A stretch of 35,258 nt of DNA from the NCBI GenBank assembly GCA_027001995.1, contig JALTLO010000058.1, forward strand, positions 30,202-65,459. The letters run 5' to 3'. Numbering within the stretch: position 1 is the stretch's first letter; each line of letters opens with the position of its first letter. A program made the translations under genes and the position numbers. The DNA is from Planctomycetota bacterium. Lineage in GTDB: Bacteria > Planctomycetota > GCA-002687715 > DRQF01. The notes beneath the pieces were generated by a model. The model was not told the DNA's origin, did not search any database, and was given only the letters and a program-made list of their open reading frames with translations. This document shows, in pieces, positions 1 through 35,258 of this stretch.

Positions 1-252
1 CCGCCACATGGTGACATCTGCCGACGTCGCCTGAGTGAAGACTTTGTCACCTAAGAAGATTTCTCCAGAGGTGGGAGATTCCAACCCTGCCAGAAGATGA
101 AGAAGGGTTGTCTTGCCAGAGCCACTGGGCCCCATGACGCAGAGAAATTCTCCCCTGGCGATTTCAAGATCAACACGATCTAAGATCTTCTTGGGGGCCC
201 CTCCGGGTCCGGTTGTCTTGCAGAGTTGGTTGGCTTTGATCAAAGCGCTCAC
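1..252 (-). CDS. ABC transporter ATP-binding protein (LolD/MacB-like), 3' end runs off the window
   Basis: Not in the ORF track. My translation from GTG at 252 (GGAG upstream) reads [15 protein letters not shown]...[44 protein letters not shown], with Walker A GPSGSGKT. The frame is open to position 1. Confidence 0.9.
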
Positions 253-453: not shown

Positions 454-2373
454 TTGTTTCCGTCTGACGGGGGTACCCGGTCTTTGGCTGTGGGCTGGAT
501 TTCCTTTGCGACAAGACCTCAATCTGCGGCAGCGAGTGGTGCCTTGGAGACCGTGACTGACAACAATTTGTTCGTCATAACGTTGAATAGGATCCCGCTC
601 ACGAACAAATACCAACTACGGATCGGCAGTCATCCTACATCGTTTACTTTCTCGCCGCTCGTTCCGTTAAACCAACGGACGTTCGTTTCATTGGTTTTCG
701 ACCCAGCGAGCCATCTGCTCTTGCTTTACTTTGACTGCGTCTTGGTGGACTTGGGCATCCCAGTTAACACCCCCGGGCTTCCCTTAGCTCTAGCGAATGG
801 TGGAATGTGGCAACTCGGCCGTCGTCCGTTTCCGAGCCAATCGTCCTGGATCGGCAGCATCGACGAATTCCGCGTTTGGGATGTGGCTCGTTCTCCAGGG
901 TTGATTCGGATGACCTCCAAAGTTGAGATTGCCAATGGCATCATTGATGTGGGGGCCGGGGAGATTACCGCACCACCGCAGCGTCTTGGCCGTTGCCAAT
1001 ACTATTCTTCCACCGAAACGCTTTCTGTCACAGTTTGCAACCCAGGTTTAACGACCATCTTTGCTGGCTCAGCTATTCCCATGACTGTGTCGGTGGATGG
1101 CTCAGTTGTGGTGACTGAATCTCTTGTGTTAGCCAATGATCTGAATCCTGGAGAGAGTGTGCCCTACACCTTTTTGACTACCATCGATTTGCAACAAGAA
1201 GGGTTCCATACCGTTCGTGTGACTTCAAATTTTCCTGGGGACACTCAACCCGGCAATGACGTTTTAGAACTTGACTTTCGCGGCGGTGGGCCGGGCGTTG
1301 TTTCAGAGTTTCCTTGGCGCGAAGACTTCGATGGCGATTTCTTTCCTTCTTTGGCCCCAGCTTCTACTATTGTCCCACCTGTGGGTTGGAATCAAAGGCA
1401 AGGCGAACTGAATCCACTGGGACTTGAAGAAGAGTGGCTCTTTGTTCGAGCCCCGCAATTTGGTGGGCTTCCGTCTATTTTTCCGAATACCGATCATACT
1501 TCCCATTCTGATGTAGGGGTCTATGCCACGATGGATACTGGCGCCCCTCAACGAAGCATAGAAAGCCCGTGCATTGAGCTCTTTGGCTTAATCAATCCCA
1601 CTTTGGCATTCTATTACAACCGCGAAAGACTGGGATCAGTGAGTTTGGCTTCTGCCCGTCTTGAAGTGAAGATCCACTCCCTCACAACGGGCACAACAAC
1701 CACCATCTTCTTACTGACTTTCAATGCTGGTCCTGATGTTTGGCGACTCCTTAGGGTTGACCTATCGCCTTGGATTGGCGAGACCATTGTTATCTACTTT
1801 GAAGGTATCGGAGGTAACAACAACACAATCAGTATCGACGATGTCTCTATCTTCGAAGAATCCACCTCCTTACCCGGCCAAGCTCCTCAACTTCTCTTGG
1901 CCACCTTCGACATCAACGGTGCCACCAACGCCAACGTGCAAGAAATTACATCTGGTGAGAATGGCCCCTACAACACCTCCAACTTCGCCCCGGCAGTCCT
2001 CAACTTCAGCTTTGAAGGATTGCCTTTGCAGCCCGTCCTGTTGTTATCTGGCGACCTCAATCCTCAGATCGCGACTTATCCGGGGATCGGCCAGATGGAC
2101 ATGGGAGGCCCTCTTGATCCGGTGACAGGAATCCCTACAGCCCTCACCATCTGGGGCGACGGTTTTGCACCCCTCACAGGTCTCGATTTTTTATTCTACA
2201 CAGACATCACGGGTATCCTGTCGTTGCAGGCCACTATGCCGCCTTTTAACCTCCCGCCCTTTCCTCAGCCTTTGATTCACCGCATGCCCTTCGCCACTTT
2301 TCAAGCCGTCATGGGCATGCCCACGGCTCCCTTCGTCGTGCTCAGTAATGCTGTGGAGTTGCTGCAATGGTAG
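454..2373 (+). CDS. Extracellular-type multidomain protein: LamG-like jellyroll + CARDB/Ig-like + MAM-like domain + C-terminal domain. Start uncertain.
   Basis: GSIDEFRVWDVARS (end of LamG-like domain), VTVCNPG...LNPGES...GNDV (CARDB-like), FPWREDFD...ISIDDVSI (MAM-like). TTG start, no clear signal peptide. Confidence 0.75.
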   Translation: MFPSDGGTRSLAVGWISFATRPQSAAASGALETVTDNNLFVITLNRIPLTNKYQLRIGSHPTSFTFSPLVPLNQRTFVSLVFDPASHLLLLYFDCVLVDLGIPVNTPGLPLALANGGMWQLGRRPFPSQSSWIGSIDEFRVWDVARSPGLIRMTSKVEIANGIIDVGAGEITAPPQRLGRCQYYSSTETLSVTVCNPGLTTIFAGSAIPMTVSVDGSVVVTESLVLANDLNPGESVPYTFLTTIDLQQEGFHTVRVTSNFPGDTQPGNDVLELDFRGGGPGVVSEFPWREDFDGDFFPSLAPASTIVPPVGWNQRQGELNPLGLEEEWLFVRAPQFGGLPSIFPNTDHTSHSDVGVYATMDTGAPQRSIESPCIELFGLINPTLAFYYNRERLGSVSLASARLEVKIHSLTTGTTTTIFLLTFNAGPDVWRLLRVDLSPWIGETIVIYFEGIGGNNNTISIDDVSIFEESTSLPGQAPQLLLATFDINGATNANVQEITSGENGPYNTSNFAPAVLNFSFEGLPLQPVLLLSGDLNPQIATYPGIGQMDMGGPLDPVTGIPTALTIWGDGFAPLTGLDFLFYTDITGILSLQATMPPFNLPPFPQPLIHRMPFATFQAVMGMPTAPFVVLSNAVELLQW

Positions 2374-2502: not shown

Positions 2503-4350
2503 TTAAAGGTCACTGGTGAAGGTCCAAACGCGGCCGTCCTCGGAGAAGTAGCGACCGGCGTTGTCGATTTCGATGAGGCGCATTTTCTTGCCGTCATCAA
2601 AGGTGATGGCGATTTCTCCGGCTGTGATGGTGTACTTACCGGGGTGGGTGAGGTGATGGGGTTCGTGGGGAGCGCTGCGCATGCTTCCATCTTTCCTGAG
2701 TTTCAGAATGTCGCGTCTCTGACCGAGGAAAGTGCCGTCCTGTCCGAAGGATTGGGCTCTCATTGAGGTTAAGATGCGATCTCTTGGGAAGAACATACCC
2801 TTGCTGTTCTTCAGCGCCTGAACTTTGGTATTCGGCCCCTTGAGGTCGGCGAAGATCTCCAATGCTTGAGCCACTTCGAATCCTTGGATGCCTTTGTGGG
2901 TTGAAACGATCCCTAAGTGAAAGCCACCATCTCGAATCATGGCGTAGACTTCGTGGGCCTTGCTGTCGTAGAAGAAGAAGCAGCGCCACGTGTGTTCGCA
3001 GTTGGGTAGATCAAAAGTTCCGGAATCTTGCACCACCTCTCGGGACGTCAGTTTGAGCTCACGACTCACCAACAGTTCGCAGGCCTTCTTAAAGGAAGCT
3101 TGAGAGATGGGGCTGCCTTGCTTGAGTGCTGCGGAACGTAGAAAGAGAGACGTGTCGTCGGATCGTAAGCTCCAAGCCACAGACTCATCTTGAGTGGCAA
3201 CTTCTTCGAGCAACCAATTGTTGACGGGATATTCAAACTGAATGCCGTTCTTGCTGACTTCCTCTACACTGCGATCAACTTCGACACGGAAGCTGTTCAG
3301 AATGTCTTGTGCTTGTTTTTCGTATGTAGCCTTCTTGTTGGCTGGATAGGTGAATTCCGCCACCAAGAGTGTGCTATCAACGACGATGACCAGAAACTGG
3401 TTGGCTGGTGCTGAACTTGAAGACGGAGGGCTGAAACTCAGAAAGCGTCCTTGTGCCGTACCAAAGAGAGCTCGGTTTCCCACTTCTACCTCTATTTGCT
3501 CATTGCCAAAGTAGCGTTGCTTGATGAGATCTTCAGCGATGCTCAATCCATCTTCGACGCCAACAAGCTCGGGTAGAAAGCCAGTGAGATTGACCCGGAG
3601 AGCTGCCTCGATTTTGTCTAAGGGAGAATAGAGGGCCTGCTCTTCAAAGGGCGTCGCAATGACCCAGAGAGAACCTGGTGCTTGCACAGTGTCTGAGCCC
3701 ACATACCAACCATCTGGGTAAGCGAAGGAAAATGGCAAAGAAGTCGTGTTGCGAAAGATCTTTGTTGTGGCATCGGTGGTGGTTGCTCGGCCTACTTCCG
3801 TTCTCGAAACGGCTTTCTTTTCGCGGGGTTCATCCTCAGTCACCTTGACTTTTCCAACGAGGTCACGGACTGCTTCGGCCTCAGACTTGTTGAGCTTCTC
3901 GCTTGGGGTCGCATCTGGGAAGATCTTCAAAGACGTGAGCCTGAGGAAAATGTTGTCGGTAAGATTCACCGCAGCGACTCGCCGTTTCGAAGTAAAAGAT
4001 TGGCCTTTGAATTCATAGGTTCCATCAAAAGCGAGGCTCAAACCCATGCGTCCATCGATTTCGATGGGTTGGGTCGAGCCCTTTACCATGGTCTCCCGGC
4101 TTTGCTTTTGTGACTTGAGAAAAGCCTCCAAATCCGAGGCCGTCGATCGCTGTATGGAAACTTCGATGCGGTTTCGTTCTTGAGACTTGGGGAATCGACG
4201 GATGAAGACACGACGAGCACGCCCTCCTGAGTTGCGATAACTCAATGGACCTTCGACTTGAATTGACCATGAGGTTTCTTGAGCTTGAGCAAGTGACGAA
4301 GCGAAGATGCTCATCACAACCAAACAGAATTGCCACCGTTTGCTGTTCAT
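2503..4350 (-). CDS. Secreted hypothetical protein with repeated PsbP/DcrB-like alpha/beta domains
   Basis: Long ORF with signal peptide MNSKRWQFCLVVMSIFASSLAQA (start moved to the ATG at 4350, GAGG upstream). Repeated motifs FSFAYPDGW and IQFEYPVNNW, and an 'ILNSFRV' domain end. Confidence 0.65.
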   Translation of the reverse strand: MNSKRWQFCLVVMSIFASSLAQAQETSWSIQVEGPLSYRNSGGRARRVFIRRFPKSQERNRIEVSIQRSTASDLEAFLKSQKQSRETMVKGSTQPIEIDGRMGLSLAFDGTYEFKGQSFTSKRRVAAVNLTDNIFLRLTSLKIFPDATPSEKLNKSEAEAVRDLVGKVKVTEDEPREKKAVSRTEVGRATTTDATTKIFRNTTSLPFSFAYPDGWYVGSDTVQAPGSLWVIATPFEEQALYSPLDKIEAALRVNLTGFLPELVGVEDGLSIAEDLIKQRYFGNEQIEVEVGNRALFGTAQGRFLSFSPPSSSSAPANQFLVIVVDSTLLVAEFTYPANKKATYEKQAQDILNSFRVEVDRSVEEVSKNGIQFEYPVNNWLLEEVATQDESVAWSLRSDDTSLFLRSAALKQGSPISQASFKKACELLVSRELKLTSREVVQDSGTFDLPNCEHTWRCFFFYDSKAHEVYAMIRDGGFHLGIVSTHKGIQGFEVAQALEIFADLKGPNTKVQALKNSKGMFFPRDRILTSMRAQSFGQDGTFLGQRRDILKLRKDGSMRSAPHEPHHLTHPGKYTITAGEIAITFDDGKKMRLIEIDNAGRYFSEDGRVWTFTSDL

Positions 4351-6748: not shown

Positions 6749-7771
6749 TTAGAGGGTCGCAAGTAAACGCTTGGCGCGGGCGGCTTCCTTTGTCGTTTTT
6801 AGGTAGCCACTGCTGATGATACCCAAGGCTTTCTTGGCCTTTTCGGTCTTGCCAGCCTCAGCCAACTCAAGGGCTTTGGCGATACGTTTTCCGGCTTCGA
6901 TTTCATCCTTCAAGGACTTGTTGGTCTTGATGGCTTTTACTTTTGCGGCTGCTGTCTTGCCGAGCTCATGGCCTTTGTAGTGCTTGGACAAAGGGGCCAG
7001 AGCAGCCAATGCATCAAAAGGCCGATCTTCATTGATGGCGGTTTCTGCTTTTTCGACGGCGGCATCGAAGAAGGAGCGAATCTCATCACGGACGGAGGTG
7101 AGAGACTCTTTATCCGAATCAGAAGTGCGGCTGTTTTGCAGGGCTTTCTCGATTTTCTTGAGATTGGCACCAATTTTGCCCTTTTCTAACCCCTTGACAA
7201 TAGAAGCGTAGCTCTTCGGCAGCTCAGCCTCAAAGGAGATGCCACTTCCGGCGCCCCCAAGCCTTGCACCACCGATATGCTCTTCGATGATTGCCGGGGT
7301 TAGATTGCTGGGGTGCCCTTTCCAAACGATCTTGCCCTTTGGATTGACCAGGAAAGAAGACGGATAGCCGCTGGCGCCAACAGACGTCATCAACGTTTTA
7401 TTGTCAGCTTTAGACAAGTACCCGACGGCTGCCTTGAGGTTTGTCACTTCAATGAAATTCTCTGTCTTCTTCTTGCCGGCGGAGTCGCTTTCTGCAGTGA
7501 CGCAGAGAGCTTCAAATCCCTTTTTCTTGTAGCTTTCAATCAACTGATTGAGGTGTGGCATGCTTGCCTTGCAGGGGCCTCACCAATAGGCAAAGAACTC
7601 GACCAAGAGGAGCTTCCCTTTGAAGTCCCTCATAGAGGTCAGTTTGGAATTGATGATTTCTTCGGTGGGAATTTTGGGCATCTTGTCGCCCACATCCAGT
7701 GCTTGGCTGAAGCTGGTGGCGGTTAAGCAGGCCAGCAATGCCAAGGTCAGTAAGGATCCGTTCTTGATCAT
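6749..7771 (-). CDS. Exported TlpA/ResA-like thioredoxin-fold protein with a UxxC active site (putative selenoprotein, 340 aa) and a Lys/Ala-rich helical C-terminal domain
   Basis: ORFs 7580..7771 and 6749..7561 share a frame and are joined by TGA(7580-7582)-GGC-CCC-TGC-AAG-GCA-AGC, giving DFKGKLLLVEFFAYW-U-GPCKASMPHL. Also the cis-Pro loop GYPSSFLVNPKGKIVW and an N-terminal signal peptide. Confidence 0.88.
7536..7582 (-). promoter_or_regulatory. Candidate bacterial SECIS region following the in-frame UGA
   Basis: Hairpin UCAAUC-AGUU-GAUUGA (7536-7551) with its loop 34 nt after the UGA. An alternative fold is UGAGG..GGCA-AGCA-UGCC..CCUCA. Both have G as the second loop base. Confidence 0.55.
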
Positions 7772-8019
7772 GGTCTATCCTCATAGAACAGCCCAATGTA
7801 AACACTGAGCGAGATTTTGGTCGTGGGGAACTCACAAGTCTCTGATTGGTGGCTCCCTCAATGGGTTCGCCCCTGAGACTATCGTCTCCGGGGCGATGTT
7901 ACTATGAGTCTTCCCAAATGCAGGAATATTTTCTGGTTGGTCTTCGTTCTGAACGTCCGCCAGTGGGGAGGACGGACGATATGCACGCGAAGGGCCCCCA
8001 AGTCGTGCCCAAATGGGGG

Positions 8020-26218: not shown

Positions 26219-29200
26219 TCAAGGCGTTACTTCAACTGTTGCTGCCGGATCCGCTGTCTTAGGCCCGAATATCAAGTAGAGAGCCGGCAATACAAGAAGG
26301 GTGAGGATGTTATCGGAGATCACGCCGCCCACGACAACTGTGGCTAAGGGGCTCTGAACCTCCGCTCCCACCCCCGTGTTGAGCGCCATTGGCACGAAAC
26401 CAAGAGCAGCCACTAACGCAGTCATCAAGACAGGTCTAAGTCTAGACAAGGCCGATTCTTCAATAGCATCTCGAAGCTTGACACCTCGCCCTTGTAGCTG
26501 ATGAATCATGGACACCATTACCAAGCCATTCAACATGGCAACCCCGGAGACGGCAACGAAACCAACCGCAGCAGATATCGTGAAGGGCATATCACGCGTC
26601 CAAAGCGCAATGATACCGCCCAAACTGGCGAATGGAGCGCCGGTAAAAATGATCAATGCATCTCGGATGGAATTCGTGCTGATATACAGCAAGAAGAGAA
26701 TTAAGAACAATGCTAAGGGGACGACGAACATGAGGCGGCCCTGTGCACTTTCCAAATGTTCAAATTGACCGCCATATTCGATGTGATAGTCGGGCGGTAG
26801 CTCAAGATTCTGAGCGACTCGTTCCTTGACCTCAGCAACGAAACTGCCGATGTCTCTTTCTTCGATATTGCACTGAACAATAATCCGGCGGCGTTGCCAC
26901 TCGCGGGAGATCGTAGACGGACCGTCCACCTGCCGGATCTTCGCAAGCCTTTCCAAAGGGATCCGTCCGCCATTGGCCGTCGGAACCAAGATGTTTCTCA
27001 CGGCAGTTGGATTTTCGCGGAAGCTCTCATCTACGCGAACGGCAAGAGCAAATCGACGTTGCCCTTCCCGAATTTCGCCGACTTTCTTGACGCCGATGGC
27101 CTCAATCACTTCGAGTACTTCCTGAGCTGGAATGCCGAACCGGGCGATGGCGTCTTGGTCAATGAGGATCTCTAAGATGGGCTCACCAGTAATCTGTTCA
27201 ACATAAACGTCCGAACTTCCCTCCACTTCCTCAAGAATGGCAGCCACTTCATTGGCCTTATCCTTGAGCACGTCCAAATCGTCCCCGACAATCTTAATAC
27301 CCAGGTCAGAACGGATGCCGGCAACCATCTCATTGACGCGCATTTCGATTGGCTGTGTGAATACAATTTTGGTGCCAGGGAAATCACTCAACTCTTCTCT
27401 CATGAGCGTTGTTAACTCATCCTGTGTGGTTGCACGCTTCCATTTTTCTCTTGGTCTTAAAGTTATGAAGACGTCAGTCAACTGCAATCCCATGGGATCA
27501 GTTGCCACTTCTGGGGTTCCCGTTCGCGACCAAATATCTCGTACTTCGTCTGGAAACTCTTCGAGTAGGACTTTCTCCATCTGCCCGCCATAACGAACAG
27601 ATTCATCCAATGATACACCGGAGAGCCGAACTGTGTTGGCAACCAATGACATCTCCGAAAGATGTGGGACAAACTCAGAGCCCGTGTTGGCACCAAGGAA
27701 AATCCCGAATGCCAGGAGTGCAATTGCAATCCCCACCGTCAGGTAGCGTATCTTCATTGCTTGACGGACCAATGGGCGATAAATGGCTTTTGAAAAGCGA
27801 ATGATGAAGTTGTCTTTATCTTTTGGGATACGAGGCAGGAAGAAGCTGGACAAGACAGGCATCAGCGTCAATGACATGATTAGAGAGCCTGAAAGAGCGA
27901 AAATAACCGTCAACGCCATGGGACGAAAAAGTTTCCCCTCAATCCCCTCAAGGGTGAGGATCGGCAAGTAAACGATCATGATGATGAGTTCGCCGAACAT
28001 AGTCGGCTTGCGCACCTCAATGGAGGCGTCAAGAACAACTTGGCGACGGGAGAGTTTGCCGCCAGCTTCGGCCAGCCGCTTCACGCTGTTCTCAACCATG
28101 ATGACGGAACTGTCCACAACCAAACCGAAGTCAATTGCTCCTAAGCTCATCAGGCTTCCAGCGATTCCGAATCGAAGCATTCCCGAGAATGCGAAAATCA
28201 TGGAAAGAGGAATGGCTGAAGCGACGATGAGTCCGGCCCGTAAATCCCCAAGAAAAATGAAGAGCACAGCAATGACCAGAAGAGCGCCCTCTAAGAGATT
28301 CTTCTTGACGGTGTTAATCACTTGATCGACGAGCTCTTTGCGCTCATAGACCGGTTTGATGATTACACCGTCTGGCAAAGAATTCTGAATTTGCTCCATG
28401 CGTTCCGAGAGACGCTGGCTCACTTCATTCGAATTCTCGCCCATCAACATGAAAGCCAATCCAAGGACAACTTCCCCCTGGCCATTTGCCGTCACAGCGC
28501 CTCGTCGAATCTCATGCCCGATTTCGACTTTCGCGATGTCGTTGATCTTGATCGGTACTGTGCCCACAGACTTGATCACGATATTGCCGATTTGGGTCAA
28601 GTCGGTTGTCAAGCTGATGCCACGGACCAAACTCAGTTCGCCACCTTGAGAGATATTCCCTCCACCGACATTCATGTTGTTCTTGCGAAGAGCTTCCAGG
28701 ACATCATCGAGGACGAGGCCGTGTTTGGCCAAGCGATTCAGATCGACCAAGACATGATACTGCTTTTTCTTGCCACCCCAGGTATTAACTTCAGCCACGC
28801 CAGGAACCGAACGTAGTCTTGGTTTCACTAGCCAGTCATGAATTGTGGTGAGCTCTTCGAGGGTCTTGCCTTCTCCTGTGACCAGGTAGTGATAGATTTC
28901 TCCTAGCCCAGTTGCTACTGGCCCCATTTCTGGGCGTGAAATTCCTTCGGGCAGCTCTACTGATTGCAATCGCTCCATGATTAGCTGGCGAGCAAAATAG
29001 ATTCCGGTCCCGTCTTCAAACAAAACTGTTACTTGTGAGAGCCCAAACTTCGAAATTGACCGAACCATAGTCAACCCAGGCAAACCGCTAATTGCTTGCT
29101 CGACAGGGAAGGTTATCTGCTGCTCAATTTCCAAAGGAGAAAGCGCGGGTGCCACGGTATTGATTTGCACTTGCACAGGCGTGGTGTCGGGAAAGGCATC

Positions 29201-29308
29201 TATGGGAAGATCCATAACTGCCCGAGCTCCAATGCCCACGAAGGCAAGGGAGATGATGATCACAATGAGGCGATGCTCAAGGGACCAACCAATGATTGAA
29301 TTCAGCAT
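26219..29308 (-). CDS. czcA: CusA/CzcA family heavy-metal efflux RND transporter
   Basis: LPIDAFPDTTPVQVQINT, GAIDFGLVVDSSVIMVEN, EGKLFRPMA, RLRPVLMTALVAALGFVPMA. Confidence 0.95.
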   Translation of the reverse strand: MLNSIIGWSLEHRLIVIIISLAFVGIGARAVMDLPIDAFPDTTPVQVQINTVAPALSPLEIEQQITFPVEQAISGLPGLTMVRSISKFGLSQVTVLFEDGTGIYFARQLIMERLQSVELPEGISRPEMGPVATGLGEIYHYLVTGEGKTLEELTTIHDWLVKPRLRSVPGVAEVNTWGGKKKQYHVLVDLNRLAKHGLVLDDVLEALRKNNMNVGGGNISQGGELSLVRGISLTTDLTQIGNIVIKSVGTVPIKINDIAKVEIGHEIRRGAVTANGQGEVVLGLAFMLMGENSNEVSQRLSERMEQIQNSLPDGVIIKPVYERKELVDQVINTVKKNLLEGALLVIAVLFIFLGDLRAGLIVASAIPLSMIFAFSGMLRFGIAGSLMSLGAIDFGLVVDSSVIMVENSVKRLAEAGGKLSRRQVVLDASIEVRKPTMFGELIIMIVYLPILTLEGIEGKLFRPMALTVIFALSGSLIMSLTLMPVLSSFFLPRIPKDKDNFIIRFSKAIYRPLVRQAMKIRYLTVGIAIALLAFGIFLGANTGSEFVPHLSEMSLVANTVRLSGVSLDESVRYGGQMEKVLLEEFPDEVRDIWSRTGTPEVATDPMGLQLTDVFITLRPREKWKRATTQDELTTLMREELSDFPGTKIVFTQPIEMRVNEMVAGIRSDLGIKIVGDDLDVLKDKANEVAAILEEVEGSSDVYVEQITGEPILEILIDQDAIARFGIPAQEVLEVIEAIGVKKVGEIREGQRRFALAVRVDESFRENPTAVRNILVPTANGGRIPLERLAKIRQVDGPSTISREWQRRRIIVQCNIEERDIGSFVAEVKERVAQNLELPPDYHIEYGGQFEHLESAQGRLMFVVPLALFLILFLLYISTNSIRDALIIFTGAPFASLGGIIALWTRDMPFTISAAVGFVAVSGVAMLNGLVMVSMIHQLQGRGVKLRDAIEESALSRLRPVLMTALVAALGFVPMALNTGVGAEVQSPLATVVVGGVISDNILTLLVLPALYLIFGPKTADPAATVEVTP

Positions 29309-29320
29309 GGGAGAGGAGTC

Positions 29321-31342
29321 CTATTTCCCGTCGACGCAGCCGCAGCCTGCCCCGATGTTTCCTTTGAGAATCTCTGTCTTCAATAAGAAGCTGCCAGTGG
29401 TAACGACGGATTCGCCGCCATCGAGGCCCTCTTCCACCACGTAGATGTCGTCGGCTTCTAAGCCGAGTTGAACCTTCCGGGTTTCGTAAAGAGTGTCTGT
29501 GAAGCGAATAAACACCACGTTGCAGCAACCTTCCCATTGAACTGCTTCCTTAGGAACCATGACGACTGGTTCAGAAGCGTCATGTACCACGATGGTTGCT
29601 TGGCCAAACATCTCAGCGCGTAAATAGCCTGAAGAGTTGTCGAGCAAGGCACGAACTTTGGTCGTCTTTGTCGTGCTGTCGACTTGTGAACTAACCCAAT
29701 CCACGACCCCCGCAAATCTCTCGCCGCGGAGGCCATCAATGGTCATAAAAATGTCCTGCCCGTCTCGAACTCGCCTTAAGTCTTTGGTCTTCACATCGAT
29801 CAGGGCCCATAACTGTGAGGTGTCCGCGATTCCAAACAGCGCCTTGGACGTATCCACCACTTCACCCGCGACAGCATTGAGTTCGACAATCTTTCCGTTG
29901 AAAGGCGCCTGAAGGGCCAAGAGCGTTGAGGTGTCTCCTTCGTTTGCTACCGATTCGATCTGAGATGTTGTTAATCCCAAGGTCAGAAGTCGCCTTCTTG
30001 ACGCTTGCAACGAAGCTTCGGCATTGCGAAGTTCGATTCGTGCCGCAAACACAGCTTGTGCCGACGTTGAACCAATTCCTTTGATCTTGTCAACGGACTG
30101 CCAAGAGAGTGCCTTAATCACTTCGTCATCAAGGCCGAACAAATGCAACTTCTTTTCCGATGCCATGGTCTTTGCCCGCGCCATCGTCAATTCAGCGCGG
30201 GCGTCCATCAAGGATTTCTCCGAGCCAGACTGCCGCTTCATTAGACGATCTTCGCGGGCGGCATTCTGAATGCTTACTTGGAGCAATTCCCGAGCCTTGA
30301 TTAAGTCTATTCCCGCAAGCCGAATTTCCATCTCATTAAGCCGGTCGTAATAAGATTGGGCTTGTTCGAGATTTTCCTTCCCTGTTTTCACGGTCGCGAT
30401 GAATTTGAGGTATTCAGTTTTCGCAATCCCCAAATCAACGGAATCTAAGATTGCCAAGGTATCGCCCGTCTTGACGGGATCCCCCAGGTCTTTTTTCACT
30501 TGGTGAACAATCGCTGGCACACGGGATGCCACACGAGCATAGAGATTGCGGGCGAATTCAACTTCGGCGTTGCAAGTAATGACATCGCGAATGGGGCGTT
30601 TTTCGATCGTTACATACTCAATTCCAGCTCGTTTCGCAGTTTTGTAAGAGCTCAATTTCACCGCAACGTCATTGTTCTTGCATGTGGGATTGGGTTTGCG
30701 CTTGATTCGCGGAACACCCGAGTCCGCCGACTGGTCAGCTAACTGTCTCTTGAACTCCGGATTACAAGTGCCACATTGAGACTCGGGGACATCGTGCTCA
30801 TTGCACCAGTCTCCCACAGATTTGAAGGCGGCCACCAATGCAGGATGGCACTTGTAACAGAGTGCTTCGGCGACTCCGTGTTCAGTACACGTCCCCCTTT
30901 CCTGGATGATGCTTGGACTACAGTAAGGACAATCTGCTTCCGCGATTTGATGTTCACTGCAGAAATCAGCTTCTGTTGTATCCGAACTGGACACATCTGG
31001 GCTGTTTCCTCACAAAGGGCATTGAGACTCGGGAACATCATGCCCCTTGCACCAATCGTCTGTGGCCTTGAAACCAGGGATCAAACCGGGATTGCATTGA
31101 TAGCAGAGTGCTTCTGGAACTCCGTGTTCTTGACACACTCCTTTAGCTTCAATCAACTTGGGATCACAAAAAGGGCAAAGGGCTGGGTCGACTCCATGCT
31201 CAGCACAAAGGGTAGAATCCTGCGTGGTTGTTTCCCCACCGGCGGAACGAAAATATGTGGAGTAAATAAAGAAGGATCCTGTACCCACAAGAATGACGGC
31301 CGTTATTGACAGAATGAGTTTCTTGTTCACAATTGATTCCAT
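29321..31342 (-). CDS. CzcB-like RND periplasmic adaptor with an N-terminal TM anchor and six Cys/His metal-binding repeats, containing one in-frame UGA (putative Sec, 673 aa)
   Basis: ORFs 31010..31369 and 29321..30994 share a frame and are joined by TGA(31010-31012)-GGA-AAC-AGC-CCA-GAT. Start at MESIV (AGGAG RBS). MFP motifs GDPVKTGDTLA, APFNGKIVE, LRAEMFG, VPKEAV, GESVVTTGSFLL. Confidence 0.85.
30760..31210 (-). repeat. Tandem duplication of a three-repeat Cys/His module (six CxxH-x6-CxxC units)
   Basis: CAEHGVDPALCPFC / CQEHGVPEALCYQC / CKGHDVPESQCPL(U), then CSEHQIAEADCPYC / CTEHGVAEALCYKC / CNEHDVPESQCGTC. DNA similarity is visible, for example CATTGAGACTCGGG near 31020 and 30773. Confidence 0.9.
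30962..31008 (-). promoter_or_regulatory. Candidate bacterial SECIS element of the efflux adaptor
   Basis: mRNA UGA-G-GAAA-CAGC-ccaga-UGUGUCC-AGUUC-GGAUACA-acagaa-GCUG-a-UUUC: a lower stem of 4+4 bp, an internal loop and a 7-bp upper stem (one G-U). The apical loop is 21 nt after the UGA with G at loop position 2. Confidence 0.7.
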
Positions 31343-31352
31343 TTGCCTGCTC

Positions 31353-32711
31353 CTAATTCTCACGTCCAATGAGGCTTAAAATCTTGGCAGCGGCCATGCA
31401 CCAGTCTCGCCGACCATCAAGGATTGCTAAACGCGCCTCATTCAACGTGCGTTGAGCATCAAGTATTTCAATGAAGGATTGTCGCCCTGCTTGGTAGCCA
31501 TCCCGCGTCTGAGAAAGAGAGCGTGTTGCGGCAGGAAGTATTTTCTTAGTTAAGCTTCCGACCTGATCAGCGGCGGCTGTGTACGATGCATAATAGCGGG
31601 CAAGCTTGGCCCGCAAATCAGCCTTGACGGCAATGGCACCCTGGCGAGCGATCGTTAAGCGGTGTTTTGCGGCCATGATCTTGCCTTGATTGCGATTGTA
31701 AAGCGGAAGGGGAAATTTCAATCCTGCTTCGACGAAGCTGTCATTGGTCTCTCGGTCTTGACCGTAGGCCAGTCGAAGCCGGACATCGGGGATGCGTTCG
31801 GCTTTAGCGCGATCAACCTCATGGGAGGCGATCTCGATGGATCGTTGAGCGGCGAGAATGAGAGGATGATTCTCGTGAATGGCTTGCCAAAGCGTCTCAA
31901 ATTCAATTTCCGGTTGGCTTGTGGGCAAGGTTCCAACAACTTGGCTCGCCGTGATCTTGACACCAACCAGCGATTCAAGCCGAGATAGCGCAGCTTGGCC
32001 CTCATGATTTCGTCTTCGCCTAGATATCTTAAGACGCTCTGTTTCGACCTGCGCTTTGAGTTTTTCTGTCTCTGGTGCCGCACGTTCTTGAAACCGATTT
32101 GTTGCGACTTTCAATGTTTGGCTCGCGAGAGTCAACAAATCGTCGAGCAGGTTCTTTGATTCGGCCAAGTATTGGATTTCGTATATGCGCTCTTGAATCT
32201 GGCCGAACACGCGTCGTCGGACTGCATCAAGACGTTTGATATCCCTAAGTCTGGATGCAGAGGCCGCAGCGATGGCCGCTTGCCTGCGACCTCCTATGAT
32301 GAGGGGCTGAAAAATGGCGATTGATCTTTCGCTATTTCTCAAAGAAAAGCCTGAAATAGGAATTGTCGCCGCTTGGATTGCGACTTGCGGATTGGGGAGC
32401 AATTCTGTCTGCCAAAGTTCGCCTACGGCCACGCCAATTTGTTCCCGGGCCGCCACAATCTTCGGATTGAGCCGGTCTGCCAATTGAAAGAACTCGCGGG
32501 CATGAAGGGTTTTCTTGGCACCAATCTCGAGAATCTCTTCGTCTAAGAGATTCGGCCTAACGGATGTCTGCACCGGAAGTGACGAGTCGTCGAATCGCTG
32601 GGCATAATCTGGCCGTCGGAAGCCAGTGGCTACGCACCCCGAGGTTGTCGCGAGGGTCGTTAAGCACAGCAACATGACCCCGATGCCGCACCCATGTCCC
32701 CTTCGAGTCAT
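31353..32711 (-). CDS. czcC: TolC/CzcC family outer-membrane efflux lipoprotein
   Basis: Signal ending TSG-C, LPNPQV, PLPLYNRNQG, YQAGRQSFIEILDAQRTL. Confidence 0.92.
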   Translation of the reverse strand: MTRRGHGCGIGVMLLCLTTLATTSGCVATGFRRPDYAQRFDDSSLPVQTSVRPNLLDEEILEIGAKKTLHAREFFQLADRLNPKIVAAREQIGVAVGELWQTELLPNPQVAIQAATIPISGFSLRNSERSIAIFQPLIIGGRRQAAIAAASASRLRDIKRLDAVRRRVFGQIQERIYEIQYLAESKNLLDDLLTLASQTLKVATNRFQERAAPETEKLKAQVETERLKISRRRRNHEGQAALSRLESLVGVKITASQVVGTLPTSQPEIEFETLWQAIHENHPLILAAQRSIEIASHEVDRAKAERIPDVRLRLAYGQDRETNDSFVEAGLKFPLPLYNRNQGKIMAAKHRLTIARQGAIAVKADLRAKLARYYASYTAAADQVGSLTKKILPAATRSLSQTRDGYQAGRQSFIEILDAQRTLNEARLAILDGRRDWCMAAAKILSLIGREN

Positions 32712-33118
32712 TGCTTGACTCCTTGGGCGTCAGCCTCAGTCTGGGGCACCATTGATTCGAATCCCAGATGCCCGGCAACGGTGCCAATCAAATGACGCCA
32801 AAACAGATCTGCGAGTCGATAGTAGACCAATTTCCCTTCAGTCCGAAAGGTGATGGCACCCGCTTGACGCAACTCTTTGAGTTGCTGGGAGGTGCCGGAC
32901 ATTGATTGGCCCAGGATCTGTGACAGATCACAAACACATAACTCGGTTTTTTCCAGGGCGAGAAGTACCTTGAGTCGACTTGGATGCGCCAAGACTTTCA
33001 CGGCTTGAGCTATGGCCCGCAGCTGTTCTTCAGGGGGAATCTGCGCCTGTGCTGCTGCAACTCGATTGGGGTCGACAAAGTCGATCTCGCACATGCCGTC
33101 TTCTGTCTTCCGCTCCAT
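32708..33118 (-). CDS. ArsR/SmtB (CadC-like) metal-sensing repressor
   Basis: LAHPSRLKVL, ELCVCDL metal box, SQQLKELR, EGKLVYYRL and an N-terminal Cys (MCEI). Start at MERK (GGAG RBS), ATGA overlap with the TolC gene. Confidence 0.93.
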   Translation of the reverse strand: MERKTEDGMCEIDFVDPNRVAAAQAQIPPEEQLRAIAQAVKVLAHPSRLKVLLALEKTELCVCDLSQILGQSMSGTSQQLKELRQAGAITFRTEGKLVYYRLADLFWRHLIGTVAGHLGFESMVPQTEADAQGVKQ

Positions 33119-33133
33119 CGCTATCTCCAACTA

Positions 33134-34700: not shown

Positions 34701-35258
34701 GGCTCTTCACGGATTTTAGTGGCTCTGCCCTTCAGGGATCAAGTCCAGGCCGCCGCAGAAGAACAGGATTCTCGCCCGATAGTTGGCAAAGTTTCGAAAG
34801 CCACGAGCTGATGATTCCAGTGATTGGATCCGGCTGTTAAAGCCTTCGGCAGGACCGGTTGTGATTCTGTGTTTGAAGTAGGTGAGGATGTTCTCCAAAC
34901 GCTTGTGAATCATCTTCGCCTTCTTGCGCACTGGTGCGAGCTGGCAGCGAGACGCCCAGGAGTACCATCGCTTGAAGAATTTTCTCGCCCACGCAGCATG
35001 AGCATAGGTCCAGAAGAAGTTGAACTGTTCACGTATTGCCCAAGCTCTAGCTGTCTTGAGGTGCAGGTCTTTCAAGCCTTCGAAGTCTATCCACTTGCTG
35101 TCACTGAGATTCTCTGGATTGCTTAGCCACAAGTACTTTGTGCCTTTGAGCGTATCGTCACCCTGTGCCTTCAAGGCTTTGTGTTCTCCACGCCTAACTT
35201 GATCCACCGCATCGTTCAGATGCTTCATGATGTGGAAGCGATCATGAACGATGTCGGC
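34701..35258 (-). mobile_element. ISL3-family insertion sequence, right end (rest outside the window)
   Basis: Terminal GGCTCTTCACGGATTT at 34701 fits the GG(C/G)TCT ISL3 IR start and abuts the transposase stop. Confidence 0.8.
34716..35258 (-). CDS. ISL3-family transposase, C-terminal part (5' end outside the window)
   Basis: ADIVHDRFHIMKHLNDAVDQVRR, TARAWAIRE, TTGPAEGFNSRIQ, ARGFRNFANYRARILF. The frame is open to the window end. Confidence 0.95.
   Translation of the reverse strand, partial: ADIVHDRFHIMKHLNDAVDQVRRGEHKALKAQGDDTLKGTKYLWLSNPENLSDSKWIDFEGLKDLHLKTARAWAIREQFNFFWTYAHAAWARKFFKRWYSWASRCQLAPVRKKAKMIHKRLENILTYFKHRITTGPAEGFNSRIQSLESSARGFRNFANYRARILFFCGGLDLIPEGQSH

Follow-up and report, generated by a model that had tools for sequence, protein, structure and literature searches.

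We describe here the adaptor gene of a heavy-metal efflux operon in a Planctomycetota bacterium (assembly GCA_027001995.1), located in a stretch of 35,258 nucleotides (nt) of contig JALTLO010000058.1; this whole analysed stretch is called the window below, and positions are counted from its first letter. The comparative evidence makes it very probable that an in-frame UGA at codon 111 of this gene is decoded as selenocysteine (Sec), which would give one 673-residue, membrane-anchored periplasmic adaptor of a CusA/CzcA-type pump. When the TGA is read through in translation, the minus strand from 31342 to 29321 forms one frame that is interrupted solely by the TGA at 31012..31010. Translation table 11 splits the gene into an open reading frame (ORF) at 31369..31010, of 119 amino acids (aa) from TTG or 110 aa from the ATG at 31342, and a second ORF of 557 aa at 30994..29321. 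The first-pass annotation had read the 119-aa and 557-aa ORFs as a single frame parted by one TGA and had noted a good ribosome-binding site upstream; translation and direct reading of the sequence bore out both statements. The ATG at 31342 is likely the start of the gene, the TGA then being codon 111.

29321..31342, minus strand: whole adaptor gene, with ATG at 31342, the UGA (proposed Sec) at codon 111 and a TAG stop at 29323..29321; 673 codons when read through.
31010..31012, minus strand: in-frame UGA within the motif C-P-L-U, the proposed selenocysteine 111 (evidence: translation, ortholog, fragment ends and contigs of two runs).
31350..31354, minus strand: ribosome-binding site AGGAG, 7 nt before ATG 31342 (direct sequence reading).

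In the read-through product, a hydrophobic anchor near the N-terminus is followed by two modules of three repeats, the adaptor body and a Cys-rich tail ending in ...GAGCGCVDGK. The six C-x2-H-x6-C-x2-C repeats read CAEHGVDPALCPFC, CQEHGVPEALCYQC, CKGHDVPESQCPLU, CSEHQIAEADCPYC, CTEHGVAEALCYKC and CNEHDVPESQCGTC. As had been pointed out before, the TGA falls on the last Cys of the third of the six repeats: repeat 3 is CKGHDVPESQCPL-U, with the TGA at the last-ligand position, and its counterpart, repeat 6, aligns with it and has Cys there.

31250..31318, minus strand: N-terminal membrane anchor (LILSITAVILVGTGSFFIYSTYF); no other segment of the protein is hydrophobic (sequence; AlphaFold helix 12-40, TTG numbering).
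31010..31207, minus strand: Cys/His module 1, repeats 1-3, the last one ending in the UGA (repeat motif; module model with a predicted local distance difference test score, pLDDT, of 93.1 and a predicted template modelling score, pTM, of 0.80).
30764..30961, minus strand: Cys/His module 2, repeats 4-6, all Cys, the last motif being CGTC with the codon TGT (repeat motif).
29606..30589, minus strand: membrane-fusion-protein body, comprising the barrel-sandwich and beta-barrel region (Pfam HlyD_D23, residues 261-588, TTG numbering).

An independently assembled ortholog from the same genus (genome G001, locus L021) likewise carries TGA at this codon, residue 111 (...ESQCPLU-GGGGAVSSLDT...). The two adaptors are 63% identical in amino acids, 62% in DNA and 36% at third codon positions, and no other lesion was found in either gene. 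The operon order is the same in G001, the regulators are 68% identical, and the G001 genome has tRNA-Sec and selA. The part downstream of the TGA is conserved at 59-66% amino-acid identity while the third positions are only 36% identical, which points to clear purifying selection on the downstream 560 codons. In public gene calls these genes appear in two parts, an orphan protein of 110 aa and an adaptor that lacks an anchor. In a collection of 5.8 billion proteins, the best matches to the read-through protein were pieces of 446-557 aa that start after the site and have no signal peptide, and the downstream pieces P0004, P0005 and P0007 begin just past the site, also with no signal peptide. 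Among the small relatives in the protein collection, 7 of 127 end exactly two residues past the third ligand of a repeat. Six of these seven belong to the window clade, namely P0080 (the window's own), P0105 (that of G001), P0082, P0083, P0085 and P0100, and end in ...ESQCP[L/T]; the seventh is the L147 form described below. At the codon of the TGA there is thus a TGA in a 63%-identical ortholog, and four more fragments end at the same residue. Three of 134 further 50%-cluster representatives (P0207-P0340) end at the same spot (P0284 in …CPV, P0292 in …CAK and P0320 in …CVT), and these diverged small proteins may be further Sec forms. The claim that the position is homologous to Cys also held, as TGC/Cys stands there in other homologs. 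Cys forms of the two-module architecture occur in G211 (CLKC) and G074 (CVAC), and a many-repeat relative in G030 is all Cys. A class-level search of 23 genomes yielded no additional Sec form.

Scanning 210 fetched loci for repeats with an in-frame TGA revealed, beyond the window and G001, one more case. L147, a metagenome contig, encodes a single-module lipoprotein adaptor with a TGA (3205-3207, plus strand) at the same ligand position (...GDWCGGHDRPESQCYLU-NPEL...). Its nearest relatives (L145, L143 and L142, at most 74% identical) carry TGC at that point, in CYIC-NPEL, and lack the L147 hairpin. A tree of 165 C-terminal adaptor regions, built by FastTree alone and therefore bearing only local support values, and with several branches that are long, placed the window clade (the window, G001, P0006, P0007 and P0008) and L147 in separate clades, each with starred support (at least 95%), and this tree forces at least two Sec/Cys character changes. 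A TGA at another place was found in G011 (L023, TGA 1501-1503, minus strand), where the adaptor ends in ...LGAG-U-ADDE-stop and the TGA stands on the conserved C-terminal Cys of GAGC, a motif shared by all 116 other distinct tails that fit the tail pattern. A scan for the C-terminal GAG-U pattern gave 0/116 and missed G011 because the G011 tail differs from the pattern. G011 has tRNA-Sec and selA, and its C-terminal TGA is a candidate Sec codon at a different Cys of the adaptor family. The replacement of Cys by Sec may therefore have arisen at least three times, in module 1 of the window clade, in the single module of L147 and in the C-terminal GAGC of G011; such threefold recurrence would suggest that selection favours selenolate ligands for capturing metals in the periplasm where habitats are rich in metals and sulfidic. 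Other TGAs that had been listed as candidates were rejected as Sec codons. Those in the rows with one TGA for G217, G312, G201 and G271, and those of L088, L095, L098, L103, L124, L128, L158 and L224, are ordinary stops of small upstream genes.

A single C/T-to-A change is enough to turn a Cys codon into TGA, and the gene could accordingly be a broken one, a pseudogene produced by a recent TGY-to-TGA nonsense mutation or by an assembly error; a single DNA sequence represents each of L147 and G011. The read support, however, speaks for a genuine codon. The TGA is kept in the contigs of two sequencing runs, and the contigs of one run, which may be the source of this DNA, cover the stretch with no difference. 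A contig of the second run (same study, second sample) spans 30747..31049 and keeps the TGA, differing only at 30817 and 30970. The change at 30970 turns a linker Ala into Ser and removes one pair of the non-conserved lower stem discussed below, leaving the TGA and the apical hairpin unaffected. The TGA is no assembly slip, because the contigs of two runs and the independently assembled ortholog hold it. Moreover, the protein ends at this very residue in another four diverged fragments, neither the window gene nor the G001 gene has a second lesion, and the N-terminal fragment of L147 was found on 5 contigs from 3 sources. Since the TGA recurs, we exclude a pseudogene or an assembly error for practical purposes and regard this explanation as extremely unlikely.

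Another explanation is that the TGA is a genuine stop, so that the locus encodes a 110-aa anchored three-repeat metal-binding protein and a 557-codon frame that is either separate, through reinitiation at GTG 30994, or untranslated. Gene callers divide the locus in this way. In addition, small anchored proteins of one or two Cys/His modules are encoded elsewhere in the Planctomycetota by separate genes directly upstream of an adaptor gene, sometimes in the same frame (L056 in G217, L051 in G312, L088, L095, L098 and L103). Free-standing proteins of this kind (P0084 and P0086, and the genes in L056, L051 and L088) share with the window protein the anchor, the three-repeat module and the place directly upstream of the adaptor. 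However, the small protein of the split systems keeps a complete CxxC and ends, after a tail, in an ordinary stop; a spacer follows, and the adaptor beside it has its own start, its own module and its own anchor or lipobox. In the window gene, by contrast, it is the Cys codon that has become the stop, and a spacer is absent. The earlier observation that the only anchor lies in the upstream piece proved correct: the downstream piece starts with an acidic, non-hydrophobic stretch and has neither an export signal nor an anchor. Candidate starts are not conserved either, the codon being GTG in the window and GTA in G001. An adaptor trapped in the cytoplasm would be useless, yet it is the downstream part that shows the amino-acid conservation described above. 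Taken with these observations, a true stop appears quite unlikely to us.

Decoding of UGA as Sec needs a dedicated machinery, and the genome has selA (510.9 bits, curated cut-off 267.9), selB (334.3 bits, cut-off 242), selD (357.2 bits, cut-off 125) and tRNA-Sec, the selC product (68.2 bits, cut-off 47), all above their curated cut-offs. The selD gene has its own TGA at the classical GGUAAK site. At the same time, ordinary genes of this genome end in TGA more often than in any other stop codon: 1033 of 2423 long ORFs do so, among them czcA and arsR of the operon itself. This excludes a genome-wide reassignment of TGA, and decoding of the adaptor TGA must be local. We also screened the genome for in-frame TGAs by a crude codon-usage method, which yielded 527 candidates, 79 with a Cys nearby; only the candidates confirmed by Pfam were used. 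The screen missed the adaptor's own TGA because that TGA fell below the coding-score filters. The confirmed genes include the two listed below, a further WUGPC gene and a formate-dehydrogenase-like gene (CSRAUHAP). Five other candidates (L231, L233, L234, L236 and L237) found no match in Pfam and were set aside.

6752-7774, minus strand, same contig and window: Redoxin/AhpC-TSA thioredoxin-like selenoprotein gene with W-U-G-P-C, TGA at 7582..7580 (screen and Pfam).
G000:C68:54417-55457, minus strand: L230, with two thioredoxin-like domains, each with a Sec codon (WUGPC and WUGYC; screen and Pfam).

For the Redoxin/AhpC-TSA gene of the window, table 11 lists only a 270-aa downstream piece (6749..7561).

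The first-pass annotation had described a stem-loop starting 1 nt after the TGA. The stem-loop is real, but its start was placed wrongly, as the fold pairs from the UGA itself and the conserved part is the stem at +19..24/+30..35 (counted after the U of UGA). The minimum-energy fold of the 60 nt in the window is a long interrupted hairpin with an energy of -18 kcal/mol (z = -2.5; 3 of 200 shuffled sequences fold as well).

30977..30995, minus strand: proposed apical hairpin of a selenocysteine insertion sequence (SECIS), +18..+36 after the U of UGA, stem UGUGUCC/GGAUACA, loop AGUUC (fold and ortholog comparison).
30958..31012, minus strand: extended stem-loop of the 60-nt minimum-energy fold, UGA to +55 (folding; lower stem not conserved in G001).

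The conserved stem has 6 base pairs, GUGUCC/GGAUAC with the loop AGUUC in the window and GUAUCC/GGAUAC with the loop AGUUU in G001, and the sole difference between the two stems preserves pairing (G-U to A-U). The 17-nt hairpin stretch is identical at 15 of 17 positions, which places it in the top 4% of the 1985 17-nt windows of the gene, whereas its linker flanks are identical at only 5/15 and 6/15 positions. The hairpin of a bacterial SECIS directly follows the UGA, its apical loop lies some 16-37 nt away from that codon, and this loop contains G/U; the adaptor hairpin agrees with this in position and in its G/U loop. Its position and its loop (AGUUC, 25-29) also resemble those following the confirmed Sec codons of the same genome, where the thioredoxin-like gene has a stem at 20-25 and the loop AGUU (26-29) and the formate-dehydrogenase-like gene a stem at 16-21 and the loop GGUCU (22-26). 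L147 has the hairpin GCUCCC-GGU-GGGAGC at +16..30, and G011 has a perfect 6-bp hairpin, GCCGCC-GGUC-GGCGGC, at +18..33, which spans the real stop. When 4000 random Cys codons in the long ORFs of the genome were taken as background, 4.2% preceded a hairpin at least as stable as that of the window, and 14 of them (0.35%) were followed by an equally stable hairpin whose stem begins at +15..24 and whose loop contains GU.

These hairpins also bear on a third explanation, that the UGA is read through by a near-cognate tRNA inserting, for example, Trp or Cys, perhaps with stimulation by the hairpin. Read-through of stop codons at leaky UGA contexts does occur in bacteria. However, the UGA occupies the position of a Cys ligand, in keeping with known Sec/Cys pairs; tRNA-Sec and selA are present in every checked genome with such a TGA; the hairpins match in position and loop those after the confirmed Sec codons of the same genome; and a product made at a low level would be too little for a pump that needs its adaptor in stoichiometric amounts. 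We consider read-through by any amino acid other than Sec very unlikely.

Several points weigh against the assignment of Sec to codon 111. The fragments P0082, P0083, P0085 and P0100 are known as protein only, and their end may be any stop codon, TAA and TAG included, or the end of a contig. None of the sel genes shares a contig with the adaptor, and the assembly is a metagenome-assembled genome with 2.6% contamination, a worry that is lessened because a selenoprotein gene sits on the adaptor's own contig. The main clade is represented by only two DNA sequences, in which no pair of the stem shows a compensatory double change and 5 of 6 pairs are invariant. The energies of the 60-nt folds are unremarkable in G001 (z = -0.1) and L147 (z = +0.7), and neither the 40-nt fold of L147 (z = -1.2) nor the hairpin of G011 (z = -1.0) is significant; the background of 0.35% was obtained with the composition of this genome and would be higher for the GC-richer L147 and G011. 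An Rfam scan of 30800..31150 gave no match at E up to 10. The 110-aa N-terminal piece resembles the free-standing small anchored proteins of other Planctomycetota, and a termination product could therefore be functional; under the first-pass alternative of partial read-through, termination and read-through may each yield a useful protein. Finally, the view of the repeats as putative metal-ligand sites, in which Sec would be the fourth ligand of site 3, is drawn from the motif and from model confidence. On the other side stand the features that mark a selenoprotein gene: a single in-frame UGA in an intact and conserved frame, the sel genes, UGA in the ortholog, Cys forms among homologs, fragments ending at the site and a conserved downstream hairpin. 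Together they support the Sec reading that the first pass had proposed, and we retain it.

The Cys/His repeats matched no Pfam or NCBIfam family, and the 245-aa N-terminal part had no sequence match in the PDB at E up to 10. For the 73-residue module (31004-31222, minus strand) the fold was predicted with confidence (the pLDDT and pTM values listed above); Foldseek gave no match for its model and VIA-align no chain with Z of 2 or more. With the model of the 245-aa part, Foldseek again found no match and VIA-align matched the anchor helix only. These missing matches do not show a new fold. The module family has 490 representatives at E up to 0.001 in a library of 1.84 billion representatives, adaptors as well as small proteins, with 1 to 8 repeats each. 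In the ESM Atlas, residues 8-90 of P0004 were assigned to an unnamed Planctomycetota cluster (0.86) and to an 'RND transporter family protein' cluster (0.77), neither of which reaches the trust level.

The family of the adaptor and its operon are clear from profile searches. The read-through protein scored 136.3 bits with the RND_mfp model TIGR01730 (cut-off 94.9), which places it among the RND adaptors, and 159.4 bits with Pfam HlyD_D23 (cut-off 30, E = 9.7e-47); its neighbours are an RND pump and an outer-membrane factor, and it has the N-terminal anchor helix of such adaptors. With the CzcB/NccB subfamily model TIGR00999 it reached 161.2 bits, below the cut-off of 319.3, and with the CusB model NF007303 55.2 bits, below the cut-off of 390. 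The adaptor would work like CzcB/NccB and CusB, yet it falls outside both subfamily models. The earlier view of an ArsR-regulated, CzcCBA-like pump agrees with the gene order, which is ArsR/SmtB regulator, outer-membrane factor, adaptor and CusA/CzcA-family pump.

26219..29308, minus strand: CusA/CzcA-family heavy-metal RND pump gene, next downstream of the adaptor, with a TGA stop (TIGR00914, 1180.7 bits, cut-off 701; ACR_tran).
31353..32711, minus strand: outer-membrane efflux protein gene (CzcC/TolC-like), upstream in the operon (Pfam OEP, E = 2.5e-42; NCBIfam matches all under their cut-offs).
32708..33130, minus strand: ArsR/SmtB-family metalloregulator gene, first of the operon, with ELCVCDL and an N-terminal Cys (NF033788, 78.5 bits, cut-off 55).

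The ELCVCDL motif and the N-terminal Cys of the regulator are typical of thiophilic-metal sensors of the ArsR/SmtB family. About 1.6 kb from the regulator gene lies a gene for an ISL3-family transposase, truncated by the end of the window (34716-35258, minus strand). In a second genome of the same genus, G002, the N-terminal part of the adaptor had no match and the whole protein only a weak one (E = 5e-8). Because of the nearby transposase and the lack of a good adaptor match in G002, the heavy-metal operon may be accessory or mobile.

On this basis we propose how the system could work. The ArsR/SmtB repressor would release the four-gene operon when a thiophilic metal is present. During translation of the adaptor, SelB carrying Sec-tRNA(Sec) would bind the hairpin at +18..+36, and Sec would be inserted in place of termination, as the comparative evidence suggests. 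The inner-membrane anchor would then present in the periplasm two three-site modules, followed by the adaptor body and the Cys-rich tail, an architecture seen in the sequence and the models. Each repeat would form a metal site with four ligands (Cys, His, Cys, Cys), and in site 3 of module 1 the fourth ligand would be a selenolate. Being a softer ligand and deprotonated at physiological pH, the selenolate could capture soft metal ions and hand them to the pump; the first-pass annotation had suggested Hg, Cd or Ag as possible examples. In CusB, an N-terminal Met site serves CusA, and the proposed role of the modules is analogous. Like CusB/CzcB/ZneB-type adaptors, the window protein is an RND membrane-fusion protein, encoded between an outer-membrane factor and a CusA/CzcA-family pump under a metalloregulator, and like CusB it has an N-terminal extension with metal-ligand residues. 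Unlike in CusB and CzcB, this extension consists of two C-x2-H-x6-C-x2-C modules and not of a Met or His site, and one of the ligands is encoded by UGA. The thioredoxin-fold U-x-x-C and FdhA genes of the same genome similarly have a UGA followed by a short hairpin, with the stem starting at +15..24 and often GU in the loop; however, their Sec is catalytic and N-terminal in the UxxC of redox enzymes, whereas the adaptor Sec would come last in the CxxU of a non-enzyme.

The transporter-related selenoprotein families given in the available part of a 2026 review of prokaryotic selenoproteomes (PMC13188914) are the SO_0444 Cu/Zn efflux transporter, MerT-like proteins, the E1-E2 ATPase, YeeE/YedE and the Sao proteins, and the available part of a preprint (10.1101/2022.07.06.499078) names only SO_0444 and MerT-like proteins as earlier transporter selenoproteins. 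As these sources describe them, SO_0444 (U-x-C), MerT-like proteins (C/S-x-x-U), the E1-E2 cation ATPase (U-x-x-C) and SaoB/SaoX/SaoP share with the adaptor the presence of Sec for Cys in a presumed metal motif and the existence of both Sec and Cys forms. They differ in being unrelated permeases, ATPases or ABC components, and none of them is the adaptor of a tripartite RND pump. When the read-through protein was compared with Pfam and NCBIfam at E up to 0.01, the models for SO_0444 (NF033936), MerT-like proteins (PF02411) and the E1-E2 ATPase (TIGR01525) were not among the matches. A word search of the available part of the review (PMC13188914) did not find adaptor, RND or periplasmic, and a search of the full-text literature, with supplements and subscription journals outside its coverage, gave no paper on a Sec-containing RND adaptor among the matches listed, as judged by titles and abstract openings. 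The first-pass annotation had not recognised a described selenoprotein family here; because no RND adaptor is among the known selenoprotein families in the literature searched (PMC13188914 and 10.1101/2022.07.06.499078, as far as available), we file the adaptor as a new selenoprotein family with Sec and Cys forms, apparently decoded in the usual bacterial way.

We also consider a more far-reaching idea, which we put forward as rather doubtful: the UGA could act at once as a selenium-dependent switch and as a ligand codon, with the selenium supply setting the ratio of periplasmic metal buffer to assembled pump, and its recurrence would reflect selection for selenolate ligands. Termination may then give the 110-aa anchored three-site metal-binding protein, a counterpart of the small free-standing proteins encoded beside adaptors in other Planctomycetota, and Sec insertion the complete adaptor with a selenolate hand-off site.

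For annotation, our reading implies that the split gene calls, an orphan 110-aa protein and an anchor-less adaptor, should be corrected to one gene, and it draws attention to a Cys/His module family of 490 cluster representatives, uncharacterised and predicted with confidence to fold, for which neither Pfam nor the PDB has a match. The Sec and Cys versions of the site would form a natural pair in one repeat architecture, in which module 2 could serve as an internal control for what the selenolate adds. If the decoding is confirmed, the periplasmic adaptor of a tripartite heavy-metal RND pump would join the selenoproteome, as a non-enzyme in which Sec is most likely a metal ligand and not a redox catalyst.

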